Positions 991-64,000 of a stretch of DNA of 64,000 bases are shown here, one piece after another; position 1 is the stretch's first letter; every line of letters starts with the position of its first letter. The notes beneath the pieces are model-generated. The model saw nothing but the letters and a program-made list of their open reading frames with translations. It made no database searches and had not been told where the DNA came from. The position numbers were made by a program, and so were the translations under genes. Source of the stretch: Escherichia coli (GTDB lineage Bacteria; Pseudomonadota; Gammaproteobacteria; Enterobacterales; Enterobacteriaceae); the NCBI RefSeq assembly GCF_024223415.1, contig NZ_CP100500.1, one strand, 5' to 3'.

Positions 991-2409
991 TCACACTTCC
1001 TCTATAAATTCAGGTTCAGTTTGCGGGTAGAAATAACGGTACTGATAATGAATCTGTGCACGGGCTTCTTCCGGGCTGTTAAATTCCCCTACGCCATACC
1101 AACCGAACAGCGCAGCTCCTGCGACGGTCGTTTCGGCATCGTCGAGAACTTTTACCGGAATATCAAGCATATTGGCTTTAATCTGATTCCACAATGTGTT
1201 GCGACTTCCTCCGCCGACTAACAATAATTCAGAGGCTTTAAAGTGGCCGATTTTTTCCAGCATCTGTAGATTGCGCTGTAATTGCGCAGTTAACCCTTCC
1301 AGCGCCGCGCGATAGAAATGCCCCCGCGTGGTATTAAGCGTCACTCCTTGCCAGCCAGCGTTCTGACACGACAATAAATCACACTGCATTTTCACGCCAT
1401 CCGCGCCAGGCGCGATCAGACGAGCCTCTTCAATCAACATTTGCCAGGGTGTTTCAGCCGTCCAGAACAGTTTTCTCACCCATTCCAGCACGCCGGATGC
1501 CAGCCATTGCATACCTGGGTTATACAACCCTGCCTGGCTATCCAGTTCGCAGGTGGAACCGGCGTACTGACTTAACAGCGAAGAATCAACCTGGGCGCTG
1601 CGAACCATTAAAATTTCCCATGTACCGGAAGAGAGCACGGGTTCATTTTGTTCAGCACCAGCGCCAAAAAGGGCGAACTGGGTATCGTGACCTGCGGAAA
1701 TCACCGGTATGCCAACGGGTAAGCCGAGCATTGCTGCGGCGCTGTTTTGTAGCGTACCAATCTGTTCACCCGCTTCCACCAGACGAGGGAAGAGTCGGCG
1801 TGGAATACCGGTGGCTTGTAAAATTTGCGGACTGAAATCGCGTTGCTGGATATCCAGCATCTGGCTGGTTCCGGCCATCGTGATATCAGTAGTGAATTCG
1901 CCGGTTAAACGGTGGTTAATCAGCGACGAAATAAAGAGCCAGGCGTGCGCGCGTTCCAGCAGTTGTGGATGATTTTCTTTCAACCACACCAACTTATATA
2001 AAGTATTGAAACTAAAGGCTCCGACGCCAGAAATAGCCTGTAACCGCTGTGCGGAGATTAACCGTTCAATATTGTCCATAACCGCTGCTGTTCGCGGACA
2101 TTTCCAGCTAATGATCGGATAGAGCAGATTGCCTTGCTTATCTACCAGAGCGCCATCCACACCAAAGGTGGTGACGGCGATACCGCGGATGTGGCATTCA
2201 GTCAGTTCACTATTGATTTGCCGACAGCAATCAGCAAAGCGTTGCAAAATGGCGTCTAAAGACCACTGGTGCCAGGTGTTGTTTTCCATCGCGATATCGC
2301 TGGCATTAGGCGTTGAGGCGCGGGCAACAATTTTTCCCTGCCGATTAACCGCGATGGCCCTGACATTGGTCGCGCCACAGTCGAGTACCAGGATAACTTC
2401 TTGTTTCAT
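991..2409 (-). CDS. fucK: L-fuculokinase (FGGY kinase)
   Basis: ORF track gives 991..2439 (482 aa); the ATG at 2409 ([15 protein letters not shown]..., 472 aa) has an AGGAG Shine-Dalgarno 5 nt upstream, whereas the ATG at 2439 lies in the loop of a 10-bp hairpin with no SD. Confidence 0.9.
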
Positions 2410-2517
2410 AATCGCTCCTGCAATATAGCCGGATAACATTGCTTATCCGGCTAACCACTCTTGCTTGTTCAGGCCCGGTAGCCGGAGCGACCGGGCATCA
2501 CATCAGGGAGTAATGTA

Positions 2518-4293
2518 TTAACGCTTGTACAACGGACCGTAGTTCTGGCAAGCGCGGTAATCCTGGCCTTCAATATCCATGCCGTGCGCAGCCCAGGCAG
2601 AAGGACGATACACTTTGGTCTCTTCAACGTTATGCATACATACCGGGATACGCAGCATGGAGGCGAGAGTGATAAAGTCTGCGCCAACGTGGCCGATGGT
2701 CAGAACCCCATGGTTAGCGCCCCAGTTCGCCATTACCGAGTACACATCCGTAAACGGCCCTTTACCGGTGAGGCGCGGTGCAAACCAGGTGGTTGGCCAG
2801 GTTGAGTTGGTACGTTTGTTGAGGATGTCATGCACATCCTTCGGCAATTCCACGCTCCAGCCTTCCGCGATTTGCAGTACCGGTCCCAGGCCTTTGATGA
2901 TGTTGACACGAGTCATGGTGAACGGGACGCCGCCTTCGGTAAGGAAGCGGGAAGAGTAACCGCCGCCACGGAAGTATTCGTGGATCGCCGGGCACCATTC
3001 GGTAGCGGCGAGGCAAGCGTCAGCCTCTTGCTGAGAGATTTCCCAGTGTGGCTTCATCGTCGGGTTACCTTCGCTGTCGCGTTGTTTACAGGAACCGTCC
3101 AGCGCAGCAGAACCGGAGTTGATCAAATGGATGATGCCGTGTTCTGCCAGTCCATCCAGTTTATGCCCCGTTACACGCTCAATTGCTTCTGGTGACCAGT
3201 AGGTACGCACATCGGCAAATACCTGAGCGGTGCCGGTGAGCTGGTGACCCATTAGCATTGCCACGCCGTTAAGACTGTCGTTTTCGGTCGCCACGACAAA
3301 GGGTTCGCGCACGCCATTCCAGTCAAATGAACTGTTAAGGATCGCTTCGGCGGTGTCGCCATTGGGATATTGATCGGTCCAGTGGCGTTGTCCCTGGAAG
3401 CCCGCAGCGATGGCGTTGTAGCCAAGTGATTCTTCCACGCGACCAATATCGGCCAGTTTGCTGTTGCCTTGCATCATGTCGCGGATACACATCGCCATCA
3501 GTAAACTTTCGCGCAGAACTGCGCGGCTTTGCTCGGCATTGCGTTGATACTGTTTGTTATTTTCATCTTCGCCATAGCGGAAGTTTTTATCAGCCCAGGC
3601 CAGTGCCATTTCCAGTTCGGCTTCGTCGTAAATCTTCTGATCGATACGGCGACGCAGTTCGGTCATATCCACCGCCTGGACTTTCATTCCCAGCCAGGAT
3701 TCAAAGAAGTTGTGATCAACAATAGAACCGGCGATACCCATCGAAACGCCGCCCAGCGACAGATAGCTTTTACCTTTCATGCTGGCGACGGCCAAACCGG
3801 CGCGGGCAAAGCGCAGCAGTTTTTCTTCAACATCGGCAGGAATCGATGTGTCATCGGCATCCTGAACGTCATGACCGTAAATGGAGAATGCCGGGATGCC
3901 TTTCTGGCTGTGAGCTGCCAGAGCCGCTGCCAGGTAAACAGCGCCGGGGCGTTCAGTGCCGTTAAAGCCCCAAATGGCTTTCGGGCGGGTTGGATCCATG
4001 TCGATGGTTTCACTGCCATAGCACCAGCAAGGCGTTACCGTAATGGTGAGGCCTACATTCTGGCTGCTGAATTTTTCTTCGCAAGCAGCGGCTTCAGCCA
4101 TACCCGCGATACAGGTATCGGAAATGACACACTCGACGGCAGCTCCGCAGGCATGGCGCAGTTTCTCGGTCAGCAGTGCGGCCGTAGCTTTCGCCATATT
4201 CATTGTTTGTTCTTCAAGCGACTCACGAACACCCATGCGACGACCGTCAATAACCGGGCGGATACCAATTTTCGGTAAGCTGATTTTTTTCAT
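2518..4293 (-). CDS. fucI: L-fucose isomerase
   Basis: 591-aa [22 protein letters not shown]...; length and sequence match FucI as recalled. Confidence 0.95.
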
Positions 4294-4325
4294 TACAGAT
4301 TCCTCACTTTATTCGGAAAATATGT

Positions 4326-5642
4326 TCAGTTAGTTGCCGTTTGAGAACGGAAACGGGCAAAGATAAAGATGACCGCGAAGCAGAGTGCGGGGATCAGTTC
4401 AGCAGTGGGGATGTTGCCCGCCGCGTCACTGACAAAACCCATGACCGGAGTGACAATACCGCCGCCAATGATGGTCATAACGATGAAGGACGAACCGTAT
4501 TTGGTGTCCTGGCCGAGATTCTTAATGCCCAGCGAGAAGATTGTTGGGTACTGAATCGACATAAAGGCGCTGCATAAAGTCAGGGCTATTAAGCCCACAT
4601 GACCGCCAGCGAAGGCTGAGATCAGGCACAGTGCCATAGCGATTAATGCGTAGGCGGCCAGGACTTTGTGTGGTGCGAAGCGACTGATGAGCCAGGTACC
4701 GGTGAAACGACCAATAAAGAAGCACACCATGGTTCCGGTTAAATAGTTAGCGGCAAAGCCTGCAGTCATACCTGGAATTTCTTCTACAGCGTAGCGAATC
4801 AAATAGCTCCAGCAGGCCGTTTGTGCGCCAACGTAGCAGAATTGCGCTAATACTGCCCAGCGCCAGTGGCGAATACGCGCCAGGCGAGAAAGCGATGCGG
4901 AGAACGATCCTTGTTTGGCGTCACTGTGATTATCACTCTGCAATGCCGGGAATTTCGTCAGCATGATCAGCAGGGCGACCAGTAACACGATAGCCACGAT
5001 GATCATATAAGGTGTCTGTACCGATAATACCAGGCTGTGTTTATACGCACTCAATTGCTCTGGAGACATTTTATCGAGAACGTCTTGCGATTGATGTGGC
5101 ACGTTAGACAAAATAAGACTTTGCCCAAAGACAACCGCGATAATTGCGCCAAATGAGTTAAATGTTTGCGCAAGATTTAAGCGGAAGTGACCACTGCTTT
5201 CCGGCCCTAATACCGTAACAAAAGGGTTTGCGGCAGTTTCCAGACAACCTAATCCGGCTGCAATAATAAATAGGCCAACTAAAAATAAGGTGTAGTTCAT
5301 TATTTCTGCAGCGGGCCAGAATAATGCAGCACCCAAGGCATATAAAAATAATCCGGTAATAATTCCTGCTTTATAACTGAGTTTTTTCATCAATATCCCA
5401 GCAGGAATTGGGATAATGAAATAACCAAAGTAAAAGGCCGATTGGATCAGGCCAGCCTGGAAATTTGTCAGTGTAAAAGCCTGCTGGAATTGAGGTAATA
5501 AAATGTCGTTAAGGTTATTGGCTACCGCCCAAAGAAAAAACAGTGAGCACAGCAGCGCGAATGGAATAATGTAACTTCTGCTTTGCCCTGCATCTTTATC
5601 TACCGCACGGTAACTCTGCGTTTGTATTGATGTGTTTCCCAT
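4326..5642 (-). CDS. fucP: L-fucose:H+ symporter (MFS)
   Basis: 438-aa polytopic membrane ORF; ATG preceded by AAGAGGA SD; operon position. Confidence 0.95.
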   Translation of the reverse strand: MGNTSIQTQSYRAVDKDAGQSRSYIIPFALLCSLFFLWAVANNLNDILLPQFQQAFTLTNFQAGLIQSAFYFGYFIIPIPAGILMKKLSYKAGIITGLFLYALGAALFWPAAEIMNYTLFLVGLFIIAAGLGCLETAANPFVTVLGPESSGHFRLNLAQTFNSFGAIIAVVFGQSLILSNVPHQSQDVLDKMSPEQLSAYKHSLVLSVQTPYMIIVAIVLLVALLIMLTKFPALQSDNHSDAKQGSFSASLSRLARIRHWRWAVLAQFCYVGAQTACWSYLIRYAVEEIPGMTAGFAANYLTGTMVCFFIGRFTGTWLISRFAPHKVLAAYALIAMALCLISAFAGGHVGLIALTLCSAFMSIQYPTIFSLGIKNLGQDTKYGSSFIVMTIIGGGIVTPVMGFVSDAAGNIPTAELIPALCFAVIFIFARFRSQTATN

Positions 5643-8030: not shown

Positions 8031-8060
8031 GCCGGATACGACGTTTGCGGCGTATCCGGC
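8031..8060. terminator. REP-like hairpin between convergent fucO and xni, probable bidirectional terminator
   Basis: GCCGGATACG / CGTATCCGGC, 10-bp perfect stem with 10-nt loop, read directly. Confidence 0.5.
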
Positions 8061-42374: not shown

Positions 42375-42427
42375 TTAGCAGTTATGTCCTTATGCTAAAA
42401 ATTATCTCCAGTTACCAGAGATAATGA

Positions 42428-42474
42428 GAAAGGTAACTTCCCTCTCGCGGGGGAAGTTACCTTTCTTTTTTTTT
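42428..42474 (+). terminator. Strong intrinsic terminator in the ygcW leader (candidate attenuator or antitermination target)
   Basis: GAAAGGTAACTTCCC-tctcgcgg-GGGAAGTTACCTTTC, 15-bp perfect stem followed by 9 consecutive T; ends 24 nt before the ygcW start codon. Confidence 0.8.
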
Positions 42475-55636: not shown

Positions 55637-55801
55637 ATTGAATTGTGATGGTTTGGTCTCCTGCACCCTTTTTTAAATTTATATTTTTTATGTGAATATA
55701 TTGTCTCTATTTATTATTATGAATTTCAAATGAAAATCATAAATTTATTCACAATATAAATGTTTTATTGGCTGATATATATCACAGATAATTTTTAAAA
55801 T
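55637..55801. promoter_or_regulatory. AT-rich region upstream of cas3 (probable cas promoter, likely H-NS target)
   Basis: About 165 bp, strongly AT-rich, immediately 5' of cas3. Confidence 0.5.
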
Positions 55802-58501
55802 ATGCGTAAATATCCTTTAAGTTTACTGAAGGATAAAAATATTGTGACTTTCTTTGATTTCTGGGGAAAAACCCGACGCGACGAGAAAGAAGGGGGTGAC
55901 GACTATCACCTTCTTTGCTGGCATTCGCTGGATGTGGCCGCGATGGGCTATTTAATGGTTAAAAGAAATTGCTTCGGGCTGGCTGATTATTTCCGTCAAT
56001 TAGGGATTTCTGACAAGGAACAGGCGGCTCAATTTTTCGCCTGGTTGTTGTGCTGGCACGATATTGGAAAATTTGCCCGCTCATTTCAGCAACTTTACCT
56101 GCACCCACAACTCAAGGTTCCGGAAGGCGCAAGAAAGAATTACGAAAAGATCTCTCATTCAACGCTGGGCTACTGGCTGTGGCATCATTATTTAAGTGAA
56201 TGCGAAGAATTGCTTCCTGCCTCTTCACTCTCTACTCGCAAACTTAAACGTGTAATAGCGATGTGGATGCCCATGACTACCGGGCATCATGGTCGCCCGC
56301 CTGACCGTATTGATGAACTGGATAATTTTCTGCCTGAAGACAAAGCTGCCGCGCGAGATTTTCTCCTTGAAATCAAGCCACTGTTTCCGCAGCTAGAGAT
56401 CCCCGCATTCTGGGATGATGACGAGGGCGTTGAACTTATAAAACAACTTTCCTGGTATATCTCTGCAACCGTCGTACTTGCAGACTGGACAGGATCGTCA
56501 ACGCGATTTTTTCCACGCGTCGCACAGACAATGGATATTGAAGATTACTGGCAAAAGGCTTTAGTTCAGGCTCAAAACGCATTAACCGTCTTTCCTCCAA
56601 AAGCAGAAACCGCGCCTTTCACCGGAATTAATACGCTGTTTCCTTTTATTGAGAATCCGAAACCGTTACAGCAAAAGGTGCTGGATCTGGATATCAGCCA
56701 GCCAGGACCGCAGTTATTTATTCTGGAGGATGTAACCGGCGCAGGTAAAACAGAAGCGGCGCTTATCCTGGCACACAGGTTGATGGCTGCGGGTAAAGCT
56801 CAGGGTTTGTTTTTTGGCCTGCCAACAATGGCAACGGCCAATGCCATGTACGATCGGCTGGTCAAAACCTGGCTTTCTTTCTATTCGCCAGAATCCCGCC
56901 CCAGCCTGGTGCTGGCACACAGTGCCCGCACATTAATGGACCGCTTTAATGAATCACTCTGGTCCGGTGATTTAGTCGGGTCAGAAGAACCGGATGAACA
57001 AACGTTCAGTCAGGGATGTGCGGCCTGGTTTGCCGACAGTAACAAGAAGGCGTTGCTGGCTGAAATTGGCGTCGGCAAGCTGGATCAGGCGATGATGGCA
57101 GTGATGCCGTTTAAACATAATAATCTGCGGCTTCTGGGGTTGAGTAACAAAATCCTGCTGGCTGATGAGATCCACGCCTGTGACGCTTACATGTCGTACA
57201 TTCTTGAAGGGTTGATTGAGCGACAGGTGCGTGGCGGAAACAGCGTCATTTTGCTTTCTGCTACGTTATCTCAACAGCAGCGCGACAAACTTGTCGCCGC
57301 CTTTGCGCGTGGCACAGAGGGCCAGCAAGAAGCTCCGTTCCTGGAAAAGGATGATTACCCCTGGCTGACGCATGTCACGAAATCCGATGTGCATTCGCAC
57401 CGGGTAGCGACGCGCAAAGACGTTGAGCGTAGCGTGAGCGTGGGTTGGCTTCATAGCGAACAAGAATGTATTGCGCGTATCGAATCAGCGGTAAGTCAGG
57501 GGAAATGCATCGCCTGGATCCGGAATTCTGTCGATGACGCTATTAAGGTTTATCGTCAGTTACTTGCCCGCGGCGTCATTCCTGCTTCCAGCCTTTCACT
57601 TTTTCATAGCCGCTTTGCTTTTAGCGATCGCCAGCGAATTGAAACGGAAACGCTGGCACGCTTTGGTAAAAATTGTAGTTTAAAAAGATCATCTCAAGTC
57701 ATTGTTTGTACACAAGTAATTGAGCAAAGTGTGGATATTGACCTGGACGAAATGATCTCCGACCTGGCCCCCATTGATTTGCTGATCCAGCGAGCGGGGC
57801 GATTACAACGGCATATTCGCGATATTAATGGTCAGTTAAAGCGTGATGGAAAAGACGAGCGTTCCCCTCCTGAATTGCTGATTCTGGCCCCCGTCTGGGA
57901 CGACGCTCCTGGTGACGAATGGTTCGGCAGTGCCATGCGTAACAGTGCATATGTCTACCCGGATCATGGGCGAATCTGGCTGACCCAGCGTGTGCTGCGT
58001 GAGCAAGGCGTTATTCAGATGCCACACTCAGCCCGCCTTCTTATTGAATCAGTCTACGGTGAGGACGTGGTAATGCCGGACGGATTTGCCCGCAGCGAGC
58101 AGGAGCAAGTGGGCAAATATTACTGCGATCGCTCAATGGCTAAAAAGTTTGTGCTGAACTTCAGGCCCGGCTATGCCGCCAATATCAACGATTACCTTCC
58201 GGAAAAGCTGTCGACACGTCTGGCTGAGGAATCTGTTTCCCTGTGGCTGGCTAGCTGTATTAACGGCGTGGTGAAGCCTTATGCCAGCGGTGCTCACGCA
58301 TGGGAAATGAGCGTTGTCAGAGTGCGCCGAAGCTGGTGGAAAAAACATCGGGATGAGTTTTCTTTACTGGAAGGGGAAGTGTTAAGGCAGTGGTGCATTG
58401 AACAGCGGCAAGATCCGGAGATGGCAAACGTGATTTTAGTCACCGATGACGAAAGTTGCGGGTATTCGGCTACGGAAGGATTGATTGGCAAGGTTGATTG
58501 A
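55802..58501 (+). CDS. cas3: Cas3 helicase-nuclease (HD domain plus superfamily-2 helicase), type I-E
   Basis: 899-aa ORF; HD motif (HLLCWHSLDVAA...WHDIGKF), Walker A (TGAGKTEAA), DEAH-like (LLADEIHA); start may be internal (GTG at 55844) because the ATG at 55802 lacks an SD. Confidence 0.92.
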   Translation: MRKYPLSLLKDKNIVTFFDFWGKTRRDEKEGGDDYHLLCWHSLDVAAMGYLMVKRNCFGLADYFRQLGISDKEQAAQFFAWLLCWHDIGKFARSFQQLYLHPQLKVPEGARKNYEKISHSTLGYWLWHHYLSECEELLPASSLSTRKLKRVIAMWMPMTTGHHGRPPDRIDELDNFLPEDKAAARDFLLEIKPLFPQLEIPAFWDDDEGVELIKQLSWYISATVVLADWTGSSTRFFPRVAQTMDIEDYWQKALVQAQNALTVFPPKAETAPFTGINTLFPFIENPKPLQQKVLDLDISQPGPQLFILEDVTGAGKTEAALILAHRLMAAGKAQGLFFGLPTMATANAMYDRLVKTWLSFYSPESRPSLVLAHSARTLMDRFNESLWSGDLVGSEEPDEQTFSQGCAAWFADSNKKALLAEIGVGKLDQAMMAVMPFKHNNLRLLGLSNKILLADEIHACDAYMSYILEGLIERQVRGGNSVILLSATLSQQQRDKLVAAFARGTEGQQEAPFLEKDDYPWLTHVTKSDVHSHRVATRKDVERSVSVGWLHSEQECIARIESAVSQGKCIAWIRNSVDDAIKVYRQLLARGVIPASSLSLFHSRFAFSDRQRIETETLARFGKNCSLKRSSQVIVCTQVIEQSVDIDLDEMISDLAPIDLLIQRAGRLQRHIRDINGQLKRDGKDERSPPELLILAPVWDDAPGDEWFGSAMRNSAYVYPDHGRIWLTQRVLREQGVIQMPHSARLLIESVYGEDVVMPDGFARSEQEQVGKYYCDRSMAKKFVLNFRPGYAANINDYLPEKLSTRLAEESVSLWLASCINGVVKPYASGAHAWEMSVVRVRRSWWKKHRDEFSLLEGEVLRQWCIEQRQDPEMANVILVTDDESCGYSATEGLIGKVD

Positions 58502-58598
58502 GATGTCTGCGACAGGACTCTCTGAATAGTTGATATACAGAAAAGGATGGAAAGATGGACAACCGACCTGGGATGGTCTTTTTTACGAGAGGATGCGT

Positions 58599-60161
58599 AT
58601 GAACTCGTTTTCACTTCTGACAACCTCGTGGTTGCCCGTTCGTTTTAAAGACGGAACGACAGGCAAACTGGCACCAGTCGATCTGGCTGATGAAAATGTT
58701 GTCGATATCGCTGCGCCGCGGGCAGATCTCCAGGGTGCGGCATGGCAGTTTTTGCTGGGGCTACTACAAACCAGCTTCGCGCCAAAAGATCATCGTCGTT
58801 GGGATGATATCTGGGAAGACGGACTGGAATCTGAAAAGCTACGGGAAGCATTGCTGTCATTAGAACACGCTTTCCAGTTTGGGCCAGATTCCCCTTCATT
58901 TATGCAGGATTTCGAGGCGCTCACGGGAGATAAAGTTCAGATCGCTTCGTTACTGCCTGAGATTCCCGGCGCTCAAACAACGAAGTTTAATAAAGACCAT
59001 TTTATCAAGCGTGGTGTAACGGAATACCTGTGTCCTCATTGTTCAGCGTTAGCCCTGTTCTCCCTACAGTTAAATGCACCGTCAGGCGGCAAAGGCTATC
59101 GCACCGGTTTACGCGGCGGTGGGCCGATGACCACTCTTATTGAATTACAGGAATATCAGGGCAATCAACAAACACCCTTATGGCGCAAACTGTGGCTCAA
59201 TGTGATGCCGCAGGATGAAGCCGACTTACCGCTACCCAAAAAATTTGACGATCTGATTTTCCCCTGGCTTGGCCCGACGCGTACCAGCGAACTGGCCGGT
59301 GCGGTGGTAACCGATGATCAGGTTAATAAACTCCAGGCGTACTGGGGAATGCCACGGCGTATTCGTATTGATTTTAATACCACGACAGTCGGCAACTGCG
59401 ATATTTGCGGCGAGCAGAACGACGCGCTCCTGAACCTGATGACGACCAAAAATTACGGCGCTAACTATGCCATGTGGCAGCATCCCTTAACGCCTTACCG
59501 TATACCACTTAAAGAGGGTGGCGAGTTTTACTCCGTTAAACCACAACCGGGCGGTTTAATCTGGCGCGACTGGTTAGGCCTTATCGAAACGGGTAAATCA
59601 GAAAACAATACGGAACTTCCCGCGCTGGTGGTGAAACTCTTTAATGCCAGCAGTCTGAAACAGGCAAAAGTGGGCCTATGGGGATTTGGTTATGATTTCG
59701 ACAATATGAAAGCGCGCTGTTGGTACGAACACCATTTCCCGCTGCTGCTCAATAAAAAAGAAGGCCAGATACCGAAACTGCGGCTGGCTGCGCAAACGGC
59801 TTCACGGATTCTGAGTCTGTTACGGAGTGCATTGAAAGAAGCGTGGTTCTCCGATCCAAAAGGTGCACGGGGTGATTTCAGTTTTGTGGATATCGACTTC
59901 TGGAACAAAACTCAGCATCGCTTCCTGAGGTTAGTGCGCCAAATTGAAGAAGGTCAGGATCCAGATGAATTACTCGGCAAATGGCAAAAGGAAATTTGGT
60001 TATTTGCGCGTCAGGATTTTGACGAGCGTGTATTCACCAATCCTTATGAGCCCGTTGATTTGAAACGCGTCATGACCGCACGCAAGAAATATTTTACAAC
60101 ATCGGCGGAGAAGCAAAATGCTAAAGCCGCCAGGGAGAAAAAGCAGGAGGCTGCTGAATGA
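58599..60161 (+). CDS. cse1: Cascade large subunit Cse1 (CasA / Cas8e)
   Basis: ORF track begins at a TTG (58530); the ATG at 58599 (MNSFSLLTTSWLPVRFKDG...) has a GAGAGG SD; Cse1 N-terminal signature; 520 aa. Confidence 0.88.
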   Translation: MNSFSLLTTSWLPVRFKDGTTGKLAPVDLADENVVDIAAPRADLQGAAWQFLLGLLQTSFAPKDHRRWDDIWEDGLESEKLREALLSLEHAFQFGPDSPSFMQDFEALTGDKVQIASLLPEIPGAQTTKFNKDHFIKRGVTEYLCPHCSALALFSLQLNAPSGGKGYRTGLRGGGPMTTLIELQEYQGNQQTPLWRKLWLNVMPQDEADLPLPKKFDDLIFPWLGPTRTSELAGAVVTDDQVNKLQAYWGMPRRIRIDFNTTTVGNCDICGEQNDALLNLMTTKNYGANYAMWQHPLTPYRIPLKEGGEFYSVKPQPGGLIWRDWLGLIETGKSENNTELPALVVKLFNASSLKQAKVGLWGFGYDFDNMKARCWYEHHFPLLLNKKEGQIPKLRLAAQTASRILSLLRSALKEAWFSDPKGARGDFSFVDIDFWNKTQHRFLRLVRQIEEGQDPDELLGKWQKEIWLFARQDFDERVFTNPYEPVDLKRVMTARKKYFTTSAEKQNAKAAREKKQEAAE

Positions 60162-60694
60162 GTATTGTAAAAGAGGAGCACAAAGCCACGCTGCGTAAAT
60201 GGCACGAAGAGTTGCAGGCTAAACGCGGCAATCGTGCCAGTCTGCGGCGTAGCACAACGGTTAATGATGTTTGCTTGTCAGAAGGGTTTCGTTCTCTGCT
60301 GATGCAGACCCACACTTTGTGGAAAATTGAAGCACAAGAGTGGCGTTTTACCGCACTGGCGCTGGTCGCCGCAGTTAGCGCCAATGTAAAAGCCATTGAT
60401 GAACGGCAGCCTTTTGCCGCGCAGCTGGCGGCGGTAATGTCGGAGGGGCGTTTTACTCGCCTGTCGGCAGTAAAAACGCCGGATGATTTACTGCGTCAGT
60501 TACGTCGCGCGGTCAAATTATTAAACGGTTCCGTCAATCTTATCTCTTTGGCAGAAGATATTTTCCGCTGGTGTCAGGAGAGCGACGACCTGCTCAATCA
60601 TCACCGCCGCCAGCAGCGGCCAACCGAATTTATCCGTATCCGCTGGGCACTGGAATATTACCAGGCTGGCGACGCCGATAACGAACAAAATTAA
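60158..60694 (+). CDS. cse2: Cascade small subunit Cse2 (CasB)
   Basis: 178-aa ORF; ATGA overlap with cse1; position in operon. Confidence 0.85.
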   Translation: MSIVKEEHKATLRKWHEELQAKRGNRASLRRSTTVNDVCLSEGFRSLLMQTHTLWKIEAQEWRFTALALVAAVSANVKAIDERQPFAAQLAAVMSEGRFTRLSAVKTPDDLLRQLRRAVKLLNGSVNLISLAEDIFRWCQESDDLLNHHRRQQRPTEFIRIRWALEYYQAGDADNEQN

Positions 60695-60708
60695 TAAAGG
60701 ACTATCTC

Positions 60709-61764
60709 ATGACAACATTTATTCAGCTTCATTTGTTAACCGCTTACCCTGCTGCCAACCTTAACCGTGATGATACTGGTGCGCCAAAAACTGTGGTACT
60801 GGGTGGTGCAACGCGTCTGCGCGTTTCCTCACAAAGTCTGAAACGTGCGTGGCGCACTTCTGCACTTTTTGAACAGGCACTGGCGGGCCATATTGGTATT
60901 CGCAGTGGGCGAATTGCGCGTGAGGCGGCAACTATCCTGATTGAGAAAGGAATCGAAGAGAAAAAAGCCATCGAATGGGCGGCAAAAATTGCGGATTATC
61001 TTGGGAAAGCTAAAAACGACAAAAAACCAAAAGATCCGCTCACTAACGCCGAAACTGAACAATTAGTTCATATCAGCCCGGCAGAATTTGACGCCGTAAA
61101 AGCGCTGGCCCATCAACTGGCAGAAGAAAAGCGCGCGCCAATAGAGGAAGATCTCGCGTTGTTACGTAAAGACCGTATAGCGGTAGATATCGCTATGTTT
61201 GGTCGTATGCTGGCGAATAAACCTGAGTTTAATGTTGAAGCCGCCTGCCAGGTCGCGCATGCGTTTGGTGTCAGTGAAACGATTGTCGAAGATGATTTTT
61301 TCACCGCCGTTGATGATTTGCGCCAGGCCTCTGAAGATGCCGGTGCCGGGCATCTCGGAGAAACCGGATTCGGTTCAGCACTTTTCTACACCTATATCTG
61401 CATTGATAAAGATCTGCTGGTAGAAAACCTCGGCGGTGACGAAGCGTTAGCTAATCAGACCATACGCGCTTTTACGGAAGCCGCACTTAAAGTCTCCCCA
61501 ACCGGCAAACAGAACAGCTTTGCCAGCCGTGCCTACGCCTCCTGGGCGCTGGCAGAAAAAGGCACCGAACAACCGCGTTCTCTGGCGGCGGCTTTCTATG
61601 AACCCATTAATGGCACCCGGCAGTTAGATGTGGCGGTGCAGCGTATTACAACGCTTCGCGAAAACATGAATACGGTCTACGAACAGAAGACCGAATGCGT
61701 AAGTTTTGACGTGATGAACAAACAGGGAAGCATGAAGGACGTGCTGGACTTTATCTGCGCGTAA
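60709..61764 (+). CDS. cas7: Cascade backbone subunit Cas7 (CasC)
   Basis: 351-aa ORF MTTFIQLHLLTAYPAANLNRDDTGAPKTVVLGGATRLRVSSQSLKRAWR. Confidence 0.9.
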   Translation: MTTFIQLHLLTAYPAANLNRDDTGAPKTVVLGGATRLRVSSQSLKRAWRTSALFEQALAGHIGIRSGRIAREAATILIEKGIEEKKAIEWAAKIADYLGKAKNDKKPKDPLTNAETEQLVHISPAEFDAVKALAHQLAEEKRAPIEEDLALLRKDRIAVDIAMFGRMLANKPEFNVEAACQVAHAFGVSETIVEDDFFTAVDDLRQASEDAGAGHLGETGFGSALFYTYICIDKDLLVENLGGDEALANQTIRAFTEAALKVSPTGKQNSFASRAYASWALAEKGTEQPRSLAAAFYEPINGTRQLDVAVQRITTLRENMNTVYEQKTECVSFDVMNKQGSMKDVLDFICA

Positions 61765-61774
61765 GGGGCGGCTT

Positions 61775-62521
61775 ATGAGCCAATATCTGATTTTTCAGCT
61801 TCATGGGCCGATGGCATCCTGGGGCGTCGATGCTCCCGGCGAAGTGCGTCATACCCATGAACTGCCTTCGCGCTCAGCATTGCTGGGGTTACTGGCTGCC
61901 GGGGTAGGGATTCGGCGTGATGATACCGAACGATTAAACGCGTTTAACCGCCACTATTCACTGGTGGTTTGCGCCAGCCGTAACCCGCGCTGGGCACGGG
62001 ATTATCACACGGTCCAGATGCCAAAAGAGGTGCGTAAATCGCGTTATTTCAGCCGTCGCGAAGAGTTGAGCGATCCTGATCTTCTGAGCGCAATTATCTC
62101 CCGGCGCGACTACTACACCGATGCCTGGTGGATGGTGGCGGTGGCAACAACCCCCGATGCGCCTTACAGCCTTGAACAGTTGCAGGAAGGTTTACGTCAT
62201 CCGGTTTTTCCGCTTTATCTGGGGCGAAAAAGTCATCCGCTGGCATTACCACTCGCGCCGTTACTGATCGAAGGCAACGCGTCTGATGCCTTATGTAACG
62301 CATACCAACAGTATCAGGATAGTTTCCGCGAACTGAAAGTCTCACTCCCGAAACTTCAGGATGAATGCTGGTGGGAAGGGAAACACGACGGCCTGGTCGC
62401 GAGCAAAATATTACGTCGCCGGGATGTTCCTTTGAATCGTCAGCAGTGGCTGTTTGGGGAACGCACCGTCAATCAGGGGCCGTGGCTCAGCAAGGAGGAA
62501 CCATGTACCTCTCAAGAATAA
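61775..62521 (+). CDS. cas5: Cascade subunit Cas5 (CasD)
   Basis: 248-aa ORF MSQYLIFQLHGPMASWGVDAPGEVRHT... Confidence 0.9.
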   Translation: MSQYLIFQLHGPMASWGVDAPGEVRHTHELPSRSALLGLLAAGVGIRRDDTERLNAFNRHYSLVVCASRNPRWARDYHTVQMPKEVRKSRYFSRREELSDPDLLSAIISRRDYYTDAWWMVAVATTPDAPYSLEQLQEGLRHPVFPLYLGRKSHPLALPLAPLLIEGNASDALCNAYQQYQDSFRELKVSLPKLQDECWWEGKHDGLVASKILRRRDVPLNRQQWLFGERTVNQGPWLSKEEPCTSQE

Positions 62522-63153
62522 CCTTACATACCGGCCAGCTTTCGCCTGCGCAGTTGTTGCATCTGGTGGATCGCGGTGAATATGTGATGCATCAGTGGCT
62601 GTGGGATCTCTTCCCAGGCGGCAAAGAAAGGCAATTTCTTTATCGTCGGGAAGAACTCCAGGGCGCGTTTCGCTTTTTTGTCCTGTCGCAGGAACGCCCG
62701 GCGGAAAGTGAAATGTTCACCATCGAATGCCGACCATTTGCGTCGGAGTTGCGTACCGGACAATCGCTTTGTTTCAACCTGCGGGCGAATCCAACAATCT
62801 GTAAAGCGGGCAAGCGCCACGATCTGCTGATGGAAGCGAAACGGCAGGTGAGGGGGCAGGCGGAAGGAAGTGATGTCTGGTTGCATCAACAACAGGCAGC
62901 GCTGGACTGGCTGGCAGCGCAGGGGGAGAGAAGCGGTTTTACACTGCTGGATACCTCGGTTGATGCCTACCGACAACAGCAACTCCGGCGGGAAAACTCC
63001 CGACAACTGATCCAGTTCAGTAGCGTGGATTATACGGGGATGCTTACGGTCACCGATCCTGGGTTATTTCTGCAACGTCTGAGCCAGGGGTATGGCAAAA
63101 GCCGCGCGTTCGGCTGTGGTCTGATGCTGATCAAACCCGGAGCAGAGGCGTGA
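62503..63153 (+). CDS. cas6e: crRNA endoribonuclease Cas6e (CasE)
   Basis: ATG at 62503 with AGGAGG SD (MYLSRITLHTGQ..., 216 aa); C-terminal GCGLM motif; overlaps cas5 by 19 nt. Confidence 0.88.
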   Translation: MYLSRITLHTGQLSPAQLLHLVDRGEYVMHQWLWDLFPGGKERQFLYRREELQGAFRFFVLSQERPAESEMFTIECRPFASELRTGQSLCFNLRANPTICKAGKRHDLLMEAKRQVRGQAEGSDVWLHQQQAALDWLAAQGERSGFTLLDTSVDAYRQQQLRRENSRQLIQFSSVDYTGMLTVTDPGLFLQRLSQGYGKSRAFGCGLMLIKPGAEA

Positions 63154-64000
63154 CGTTTGTACCACTGAGTCCGATCCCGTTAAAAGATCGCACCTCTATG
63201 ATCTTCCTCCAGTACGGTCAAATCGACGTACTGGACGGCGCTTTCGTGCTGATCGACAAAACCGGGATCCGCACGCACATTCCGGTGGGATCGGTCGCCT
63301 GCATTATGCTCGAACCGGGAACGAGAGTTTCCCACGCGGCGGTGCATCTGGCCGCCACGGTGGGAACACTGCTGGTCTGGGTCGGTGAAGCGGGCGTTCG
63401 CGTTTACTCTTCCGGACAACCCGGAGGGGCGCGGGCAGATAAATTACTCTACCAGGCAAAGCTGGCTTTAACGGAAGATCTACGCCTGAAGGTGGTGCGC
63501 AAAATGTATGAATTACGTTTTCGTGAGCCACCGCCAGCTCGCCGTTCAGTGGATCAGCTACGGGGAATTGAGGGATCCCGCGTTCGCCAGACCTATGCAT
63601 TACTGGCGAAACAATATGGTGTGAAATGGAATGGTCGCAAATACGATCCTAAAGACTGGGAAAAAGGCGATGTTGTGAATCGCTGCATCAGTGCTGCCAC
63701 ATCATGTCTGTACGGTATTTCTGAAGCGGCAGTATTAGCCGCGGGATATGCGCCCGCTATTGGATTTATTCATAGTGGCAAACCGCTTTCATTTGTTTAT
63801 GACATAGCCGATATCATTAAATTTGATTCGGTTGTGCCAAAGGCATTTGAAATAGCGGCAAGACACCCGGCAGAATCTGATAAAGAAGTCAGATTAGCCT
63901 GTCGCGATATTTTCCGTAGCACTAAGTTAACGGGCAAATTAATACCGTTAATTGAGGAAGTCCTTGCTGCAGGTGAAATTGAACCACCACAACCCGCGCC
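63150..64000 (+). CDS. cas1: Cas1 integrase; N-terminal about 283 codons, 3' end beyond window
   Basis: GTG at 63150 (GTGA overlap with the cas6e stop); translation VTFVPLSPIPLKDRTSMIFLQYGQIDVLDGAFVLIDKTGIRTHIPVGSVACIMLEPGTRVSHAAV...; absent from ORF track because there is no stop in the window. Confidence 0.92.
   Translation, partial: MTFVPLSPIPLKDRTSMIFLQYGQIDVLDGAFVLIDKTGIRTHIPVGSVACIMLEPGTRVSHAAVHLAATVGTLLVWVGEAGVRVYSSGQPGGARADKLLYQAKLALTEDLRLKVVRKMYELRFREPPPARRSVDQLRGIEGSRVRQTYALLAKQYGVKWNGRKYDPKDWEKGDVVNRCISAATSCLYGISEAAVLAAGYAPAIGFIHSGKPLSFVYDIADIIKFDSVVPKAFEIAARHPAESDKEVRLACRDIFRSTKLTGKLIPLIEEVLAAGEIEPPQPA

Follow-up and report, generated by a model that had tools for sequence, protein, structure and literature searches.

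The translation start of Escherichia coli fucK and two hairpins, probable remnants of a REP pair, in the fucI-fucK spacer

REPs accumulate in intergenic spacers without needing a function. Intercistronic REPs of the malE-malF and hisJ-hisQ type are reportedly stabilizers of mRNA, a role said to go back to Newbury et al. in 1987, and the hairpins between fucI and fucK of Escherichia coli resemble them as stable hairpins that follow the stop codon of the upstream cistron in a polycistronic sugar operon, with the difference that the function at fucI-fucK is putative. REPs and BIMEs in operons stabilize upstream mRNA against 3'-5' exonucleases and attenuate transcription (PMC3333891). According to Ton-Hoang et al. 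(PMC3333891), binding and cleavage by RAYT in vitro require GTAG and a stem mismatch, and a perfect palindrome is refractory. E. coli REPs are the specific target reported for the insertion sequence IS1397 (PMC1525189; PMC3333891). The fucI-fucK hairpins share with the REP/PU and BIME class (y, z1 and z2) the layout of an extragenic, GC-rich, inverse pair of palindromes between cistrons, with the core GCCGGATAAG...ATCCGGC. They are unlike that class in the loss of GTAG/CTAC (GTTAG and CCTGA are found instead), the deletion of the inner stem, the conversion of the AA/CC mismatch to A-T pairs, and the occurrence of this sequence variant as a single copy. Stable GC hairpins are found at the same junction, upstream of the fucK Shine-Dalgarno (SD) sequence, in Raoultella, Enterobacter, Kluyvera, and Symbiopectobacterium. 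These are unrelated in sequence, carry a T-run, and lie in a spacer of approximately 52 nt, whereas the E. coli hairpins have no T-run. As for the start codon of fucK, the closest precedent is the group of re-annotated K-12 starts (U00096.2 to U00096.3; EcoGene 3.0), in which the same gene underwent the same 30-nt (10-codon) shift; only the strain differs here.

The window analyzed here, 64,000 nucleotides in length, comes from the chromosome of an E. coli strain other than K-12, to which most of it is 97-99% identical, and includes the fuc regulon, with fucI, fucK, and fucU all on the minus strand. The upstream cistron, fucI (L-fucose isomerase; 2518..4293, stop codon at 2520-2518), is followed by an intercistronic spacer of 108 nt (2410..2517, minus strand, as read from the sequence), which contains both hairpins and is identical to that of K-12, and then by fucK (L-fuculokinase, FGGY family; 991..2409, minus strand, 472 aa plus stop codon, with the start used in RefSeq and in NC_000913.3). 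On the minus strand the spacer reads ...GGTTAGCCGGATAAGCAATGTTATCCGGCTATATTGCAGGAGCGATTATGAAACAA, and its order from 5' to 3' is hairpin 1, a 19-nt linker, hairpin 2, TATTGC, AGGAG, CGATT, and the ATG at 2409. The SD motif AGGAG occupies 2415..2419 (minus strand) and is separated from the ATG at 2409-2407 by the 5-nt spacer CGATT. A second, upstream in-frame ATG (2437..2439, minus strand) is located in the loop of hairpin 2 and opens the longest open reading frame (ORF), which spans 991..2439 and encodes 482 aa from an ATG start, that is, an extension of 10 residues by comparison to the 472-aa form. This ORF is closed on its 5' side by an in-frame TAA two codons before the ATG at 2439, with 11 open codons. 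The identity of the gene product is clear from its score of 845.5 bits against TIGR02628 (cutoff 470.9), with coverage of profile positions 1-465 of 465, and from Pfam scores of 305.5 bits for FGGY_N and 80 bits for FGGY_C. K-12 FucK aligns from residue 1 at position 2409 with 99.8% identity.

Very probably, the start codon of fucK is the ATG at 2409, which yields the 472-aa L-fuculokinase, and the ATG at 2439 is in frame by accident. In every E. coli genome opened, the start called by PGAP is the equivalent of window position 2409. The K-12 record NC_000913.3 places fucK at 2937468-2938886 and encodes a protein of 472 aa, NP_417283.2, and the version number.2 indicates that this protein has been revised. 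In the protein collection, at least 1000 contigs carry the 472-aa form, compared with 2 old GenBank records that carry the 482-aa form. Based on a scan of one genome per species in Enterobacteriaceae, we compared 43 full-length orthologous loci from Escherichia, Citrobacter, Klebsiella, Salmonella, Raoultella, Kluyvera, Enterobacter, Kosakonia, Buttiauxella, and other genera. The N terminus MK(Q/N)(E/D)V begins at the homologous ATG in all 43 loci (MNNDV in one of them), and in most of the 43 spacers a GGAG is positioned usually 5-8 nt upstream of this ATG, with GGGAG, GGGGG, or CAGGGG in a few. Similarity among the orthologues collapses directly upstream of the homologous ATG. In-frame upstream starts are entirely absent from 13 of the 43 loci and are elsewhere located between 1 and 114 codons away, mostly at non-homologous distances, and we found no conserved upstream start common to the 43 orthologous loci. 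In E. albertii, the spacer of which is otherwise near-identical, the loop sequence is GCCATA, with ATA replacing the upstream ATG. Citrobacter sp. NCU1 and relatives carry GCGCAATGCC in the homologous REP loop, likewise 10 codons upstream and in frame.

Family profiles and a known protein structure give the same picture of the N terminus. Position 1 of Pfam FGGY_N corresponds to residue 15 of the 482-aa form and position 1 of TIGR02628 to residue 14, which places the ten extra residues outside the family; the profiles thus begin at residue 4-5 of the 472-aa form, 3-4 residues after the methionine encoded at 2409. In the solved structure of a Streptococcus FucK (4c23), residue 7 aligns with residue 13 of the 482-aa form, and only six residues precede the aligned block. 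The 472-aa form thus begins shortly before the LDxGxT phosphate-binding motif, as expected for the family. In strain BH100, a 1.4-kb insertion sequence lies between the loop ATG and fucK, yet PGAP calls an intact 472-aa fucK.

The ambiguity of the fucK start was already known; it was raised in 2007 and was settled in the K-12 reference annotation by 2014, with support from ribosome profiling. In Makita et al. (2007; PMC1805508), fucK had the highest posterior probability of the "wrong" predictions, at -10 codons from the EcoGene site; the authors judged the SD-led site to be right from the comparison with other genomes, and included fucK among candidate multi-start genes. The EcoGene set, described as confirmed by N-terminal protein sequencing, had the other fucK start in 2007 (PMC1805508). 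This entry is a point against 2409; the entry was judged erroneous by Makita et al. and was later reversed in the annotation. According to Table S3 of Nakahigashi et al. (2016; PMC4909307), the fucK start was shifted by 30 nt between U00096.2 (2006) and U00096.3 (2014). Their tetracycline ribosome profiling (TetRP) data for fucK were scored automatically as "no change" and on manual inspection as "3. 2014: signal at 2014 initiation site"; the same study reported dual starts for 28 other E. coli genes (PMC4909307). The TetRP support for fucK consists of a single table entry, and expression of the fuc operon is poor in the absence of fucose. Full-text literature searches for fucK together with ribosome profiling or N-terminal data returned nothing besides PMC1805508 and PMC4909307, and no N-terminal peptides of FucK were found.

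The predicted energetics of initiation also differ between the two ATGs. Opening of the region from -15 to +5 costs 4.6 kcal/mol at 2409 vs 17.0 kcal/mol at 2439, and the best anti-SD duplex is -6.6 kcal/mol at 2409 vs -3.3 kcal/mol at 2439. The SD at 2415-2419 has a mean unpaired probability of 0.79, and the ATG at 2439 is itself unpaired in its loop with a probability of 0.99. The features of canonical SD-led initiation, namely a complementary SD, a spacing of 5-9 nt, and accessibility, are all present at 2409. A gap of 7 nt separates hairpin 2, a stable structure, from the SD downstream of it. According to the folding model, the hairpin leaves the SD accessible and does not repress the initiation of fucK, for which this canonical AGGAG is very probably used. 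These observations bear out the central proposal of the original prediction, that 2409 is the real start, which is now backed by annotation, conservation, family profiles, energetics, and the TetRP entry. The proposal had called for a comparison of the N terminus across species, in which all 43 loci start at the homologous ATG and the upstream start is not shared. The longest fucK ORF does begin at 2439 with its ATG in a 6-nt hairpin loop (GCAATG, 2442-2437), the upstream ATG does lack an SD, as is evident from the anti-SD duplexes, and AGGAG was correctly placed 5 nt upstream of the ATG at 2409 (2419-2415). The hairpin had been described as a perfect 10-bp stem at 2427..2452; it is indeed perfect, and the stem is 11 bp long (2453-2443 / 2436-2426).

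Hairpin 2 (2426..2453, minus strand) has a free energy of -16.7 kcal/mol when folded alone, and its arms, TAGCCGGATAA (2453-2443) and TTATCCGGCTA (2436-2426), are 100% complementary with 6 nt between them. It is the probable decayed second REP/PU of a BIME. Hairpin 1 (2473..2496, minus strand; -17.4 kcal/mol), the probable decayed first REP/PU of the same BIME, is formed by GCCCGGT and ACCGGGC on either side of cgctccggct. Hairpin 2 is present in both the minimum free energy (MFE) and the centroid structures of the spacer, with z = -3.1 for a 141-nt stretch. The MFE of the 108-nt spacer is -46.4 kcal/mol (z = -4.6 vs dinucleotide shuffles). We counted 6 distinct hairpins in the window whose stem is perfect over 10 bp or more and whose loop is 3-8 nt; 40 dinucleotide shuffles contained 0.28 on average and never more than 2, indicating that such a hairpin is not a chance occurrence. 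An Rfam scan of 2300-2650 at a permissive E-value returned only two chance-level matches (E = 2.6 and 8.9), far below gathering scores, and a scan of 2300-2700 for promoters and terminators identified no promoter-like or terminator-like site. Hairpin 2 is followed by TATTGCAGG, and there is no T-run after either of the E. coli hairpins.

Judging by sequence comparison, hairpins 1 and 2 are best understood as the remnants of a REP pair, i.e. a BIME remnant. Most Citrobacter and Klebsiella species and Raoultella planticola have a fucI-fucK spacer of approximately 100 nt that contains two inverse canonical REPs, in the order GCCCGGTGGCGCAAGCTTACCGGGCCTAC, linker, GTAGGCCGGATAAGCGCAGCGCCATCCGGC. 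In an alignment with ten other species of Citrobacter, Klebsiella, and Raoultella, hairpin 1 falls on GCCCGGTGGCGCAAGCTTACCGGGCCTAC and hairpin 2 on GTAGGCCGGATAAGCGCAGCGCCATCCGGC, column for column. Salmonella spacers are of similar length and contain palindromes flanked by GTAGG/CCTAC, with a more divergent sequence. By comparison to the canonical units, CCTAC after hairpin 1 is changed to CCTGA and GTAGG before hairpin 2 to GTTAG in Escherichia. In unit 2, the inner CG...CG pairs are lost in Escherichia, and CC is replaced by TT opposite the AA of GGATAAG, so that the two-base mismatch has become A-T pairs and the palindrome is perfect. GTAGG/CCTAC motifs, of which there are 1-2 in most Citrobacter, Klebsiella, and Salmonella spacers, are absent from the E. 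coli spacer. The BIME arrangement is thus kept, as hairpin 1, a 19-nt linker, and hairpin 2, and both units lack several hallmarks of REPs. Neither unit has the GTAG tetranucleotide (CTAC when inverted). REPs are imperfect palindromes with a stem mismatch, whereas 11 of 11 bp are paired in hairpin 2, and REPs occur in many copies per genome, whereas the 36-nt stretch of hairpin 2 is found at a median of one place per E. coli genome. Two further hallmarks are present, namely positional and sequence homology to recognized REPs, and use as a target by a REP-specific insertion sequence, the latter in a single natural case. In that case, strain BH100 (NZ_CP025251.1), IS1397 is located at the junction of the loop and the 3' arm of hairpin 2 with a 4-bp duplication of GTTA.

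The decamer GCCGGATAAG is present 14 times in the window, compared to 3.4 expected. Of 5426 E. coli genomes, 5424 contain hairpin 2, each in a single copy; its 36-nt stretch is identical in 4911 of these 5424 and differs by one base in the remainder. We also considered hairpin 2 as a member of a repeated family, which is ruled out because this sequence variant is single-copy per genome. With GTAG/CTAC gone from both units and the mismatch gone from unit 2, features that are required according to PMC3333891, both units are apparently decayed and should no longer be mobilized. The REP character that is left was nevertheless sufficient for IS1397 to insert in strain BH100. The ATG at 2439 is a by-product of this REP decay and has no role in initiation. 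In the NC_000913.3 record used here, which has no repeat features, not even the canonical REP that separates barA from gudD is marked, so that the absence of such features at fucI-fucK is uninformative. The decayed-BIME identity of the hairpins and the IS1397 insertion in one strain are a small addition to a well-known class.

It is a real, if tentative, possibility that the two hairpins have kept, on the fucPIKUR transcript, the activity known for intercistronic REPs. They would then block 3'-5' exonucleases and stabilize the upstream fucPI, or attenuate read-through, and FucI would be produced in excess of FucK. A strong hairpin was present in all 44 spacers that we examined, in the form of a REP pair, of a GC hairpin with a T-run (in the genera with a 52-nt spacer), or of other palindromes. 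None of the 15 variable spacer sites in Escherichia is located within the 22 stem nucleotides of hairpin 2, and 3 of the 15 are in its 6-nt loop; the stems of hairpin 1 contain 2 of the 15, both of which result in G-U wobble pairs. This test of substitutions is weak, with P of about 0.02-0.06 from 9 hand-picked, non-independent sequences. Taken together, the strong hairpins of unrelated kinds in 44 of 44 spacers and the substitution pattern within Escherichia suggest that structure at this junction matters. In E. whittamii, hairpin 2 is missing, so at least one close relative can dispense with it. A more specific proposal, which we consider rather doubtful, is that the decayed BIME has been domesticated as an intercistronic RNA element of which the stems alone are under selection, and which might set the ratio of FucI to FucK through blockade of 3' exonucleases or partial attenuation, as an equivalent of the terminator-like hairpins of other genera. 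In a rarer variant of this proposal, melting of the hairpin may expose the loop AUG and give rise to a minor 482-aa isoform. At the level of regulation by RNA, Spot 42 has been reported to repress fucI and fucK (PMC12612679). A paper on the expression of the fucose operon (PMC10221146) makes no mention of the fucI-fucK spacer.

Different readings of the two ATGs have to be weighed against a start at 2409. Exclusive initiation at the ATG at 2439, producing a 482-aa FucK, is extremely improbable. Although this ATG opens the longest ORF, was the K-12 annotation until U00096.2 and the EcoGene-set site used by Makita et al., persists as the start of the 482-aa form in the two old GenBank records, and is unpaired in its loop (0.99), it has no SD, and the region where the ribosome would bind is locked in the -16.7 kcal/mol stem, which takes 17 kcal/mol to open. 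Moreover, the 10-residue extension is absent from family profiles and is unconserved beyond E. coli and its closest clades, with ATA in E. albertii; the K-12 annotation was changed away from 2439, and the TetRP signal is at the new site. Use of both ATGs, with a major 472-aa form and a minor 482-aa isoform made upon melting of the hairpin at higher temperature or upon unwinding by ribosomes or a helicase, appears very improbable. The manual TetRP entry for fucK is "3. 2014" and not "4. multiple", and the lack of an SD at 2439 weighs against this reading as well, despite the place of fucK among the candidate multi-start genes of Makita et al. and the 28 other dual-start genes of Nakahigashi et al. 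Retention of the ATG in nearly all E. coli sampled, with the 36-nt stretch identical in 4911 of 5424 genomes, would fit a dual start, but the spacer as a whole has diverged very little within E. coli, which accounts for this retention. The ATG is lost in E. albertii and has no equivalent in most other genera.

With the start at 2409, two further readings concern the hairpins. There is close to an even chance that they are inert, dead REPs, the conservation of which reflects the short divergence time within Escherichia. The units have lost GTAG/CTAC, and unit 2 the mismatch, that RAYT requires (PMC3333891); hairpin 2 is lost in E. whittamii, an insertion sequence within it is tolerated by BH100, and the substitution statistics are weak, all of which is consistent with an inert relic. 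On the other hand, some stable hairpin of unrelated sequence is kept between fucI and fucK in every lineage examined, and both of the observed stem substitutions preserve pairing. It is highly unlikely that the hairpin is an intrinsic terminator, or conceals an internal promoter, that separates fucPI from fucKUR. A terminator-like hairpin with a T-run does occupy this junction in other genera, and TATATT follows the E. coli stem; however, there is no T-run in E. coli, and a transcript starting past TATATT would be devoid of most of the leader. On the basis of the negative scan of 2300-2700, we rejected both the terminator and the internal-promoter readings for E. coli.

Several other genes of the window had likewise been proposed to start well inside their longest ORF, and we examined these by mapping the K-12 RefSeq starts onto the window. 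The proposal holds for xni (30 codons), gudD (8), ygcW (25), queD (29), ygcN (10), and cysH (51). Upstream extensions are probable, and uncertain, for cas6e (46 codons) and cse1 (about 26), for which the alignments are at only 21-27% identity, and ygcS does not belong in the group since its longest ORF is not upstream of the K-12 RefSeq start. The longest ORF begins upstream of the start in 15 of 47 genes of the window and in 18 of 51 in K-12. Starts inside the longest ORF are thus a normal and unremarkable situation, which matches the published use of the first possible start by 62.6% of verified E. coli genes (PMC1805508). In the same window, ygcW has the same pattern as fucK, with a 16-bp hairpin within its 25-codon extension.

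In conclusion, the case of fucK is of little import beyond annotation hygiene. Both RefSeq and the K-12 reference already give the correct 472-aa start. An in-frame ATG within a REP-derived hairpin is a recurrent route to over-extended genes in longest-ORF callers. The fucI-fucK junction provides a tidy example of what appears to be a REP pair that has eroded at its original location but kept its stems, and related genera each keep some hairpin at this position.

Hairpin 2 of the fucI-fucK spacer (2453-2426) is itself the site of an insertion in another strain. In E. coli BH100 (NZ_CP025251.1; positions 3189-4620 of its fuc locus), the IS3-family element IS1397 lies at the junction of the loop and the 3' arm, corresponding to about 2433-2437 of the window, and is accompanied by a 4-bp GTTA duplication. 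Among 5424 E. coli genomes, the spacer is interrupted in BH100 alone. Separately, the fucK leader (2410-2430) adjoins hairpin 2 and is a candidate pairing region for Spot 42, whose repressed genes include fucI and fucK according to a review (PMC12612679).

REP or REP-like palindromes also occur elsewhere in the window. A REP-like one, GCCGGATACGACGTTTGCGGCGTATCCGGC (8031-8060), sits where fucO and xni converge, between their 3' ends, and has no adjoining GTAG. Another, TAGGCCGGATAAGGCGTTAACGCCGCATCCGGCATA (21957-21992), between barA and gudD, is a canonical y-type REP with GTAGG and served as a comparison. The ygcW start (42499) is preceded, at a distance of 33 nt, by a perfect 16-bp hairpin, AGAAAGGTAACTTCCC...GGGAAGTTACCTTTCT (42427-42466), which falls within the 25-codon upstream extension of the longest ygcW ORF. 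Choosing a start by ORF length alone would mislead here just as it does at fucK.

Parts of the window diverge from K-12. At about 34200, the ygcG homologue shares only 43% identity with its K-12 counterpart, with flanking genes at 98-100%, which makes the ygcG region a locally divergent segment. At about 55800-63200, cas3, cse1, cas7e, cas5e, and cas6e share only 21-34% identity with the type I-E proteins of K-12, cas1e is 86% identical, and the region appears to represent the other of the E. coli type I-E cas alleles.

The content of the fucI-fucK spacer varies among genera. In Enterobacter, Raoultella, Kluyvera, and Symbiopectobacterium it comprises only about 52 nt, and a terminator-like GC hairpin with a T-run replaces the REP pair (958-988 and 953-988 in the fuc loci L024 and L045, respectively; also in loci L020, L027, L030, and L042). 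The spacers of Citrobacter amalonaticus S646 and Citrobacter sp. MGH106 (L014 and L046; 183 and 118 nt) carry, in place of a REP pair, a different long palindrome, GCAGGACAAAAACA...TTTTTGTCCTGC, possibly a small repeat element of some other type. In Escherichia whittamii (L038, 947-1000), the 54-nt spacer contains hairpin 1 only, and hairpin 2 is absent. Because the E. whittamii junction, AAGCAGGAGCGACT, is similar to both flanks of E. coli hairpin 2, GCAAGAGTGGTT and GCAGGAGCGATT, the sequence comparison suggests that hairpin 2 was lost or gained through recombination between short direct repeats.
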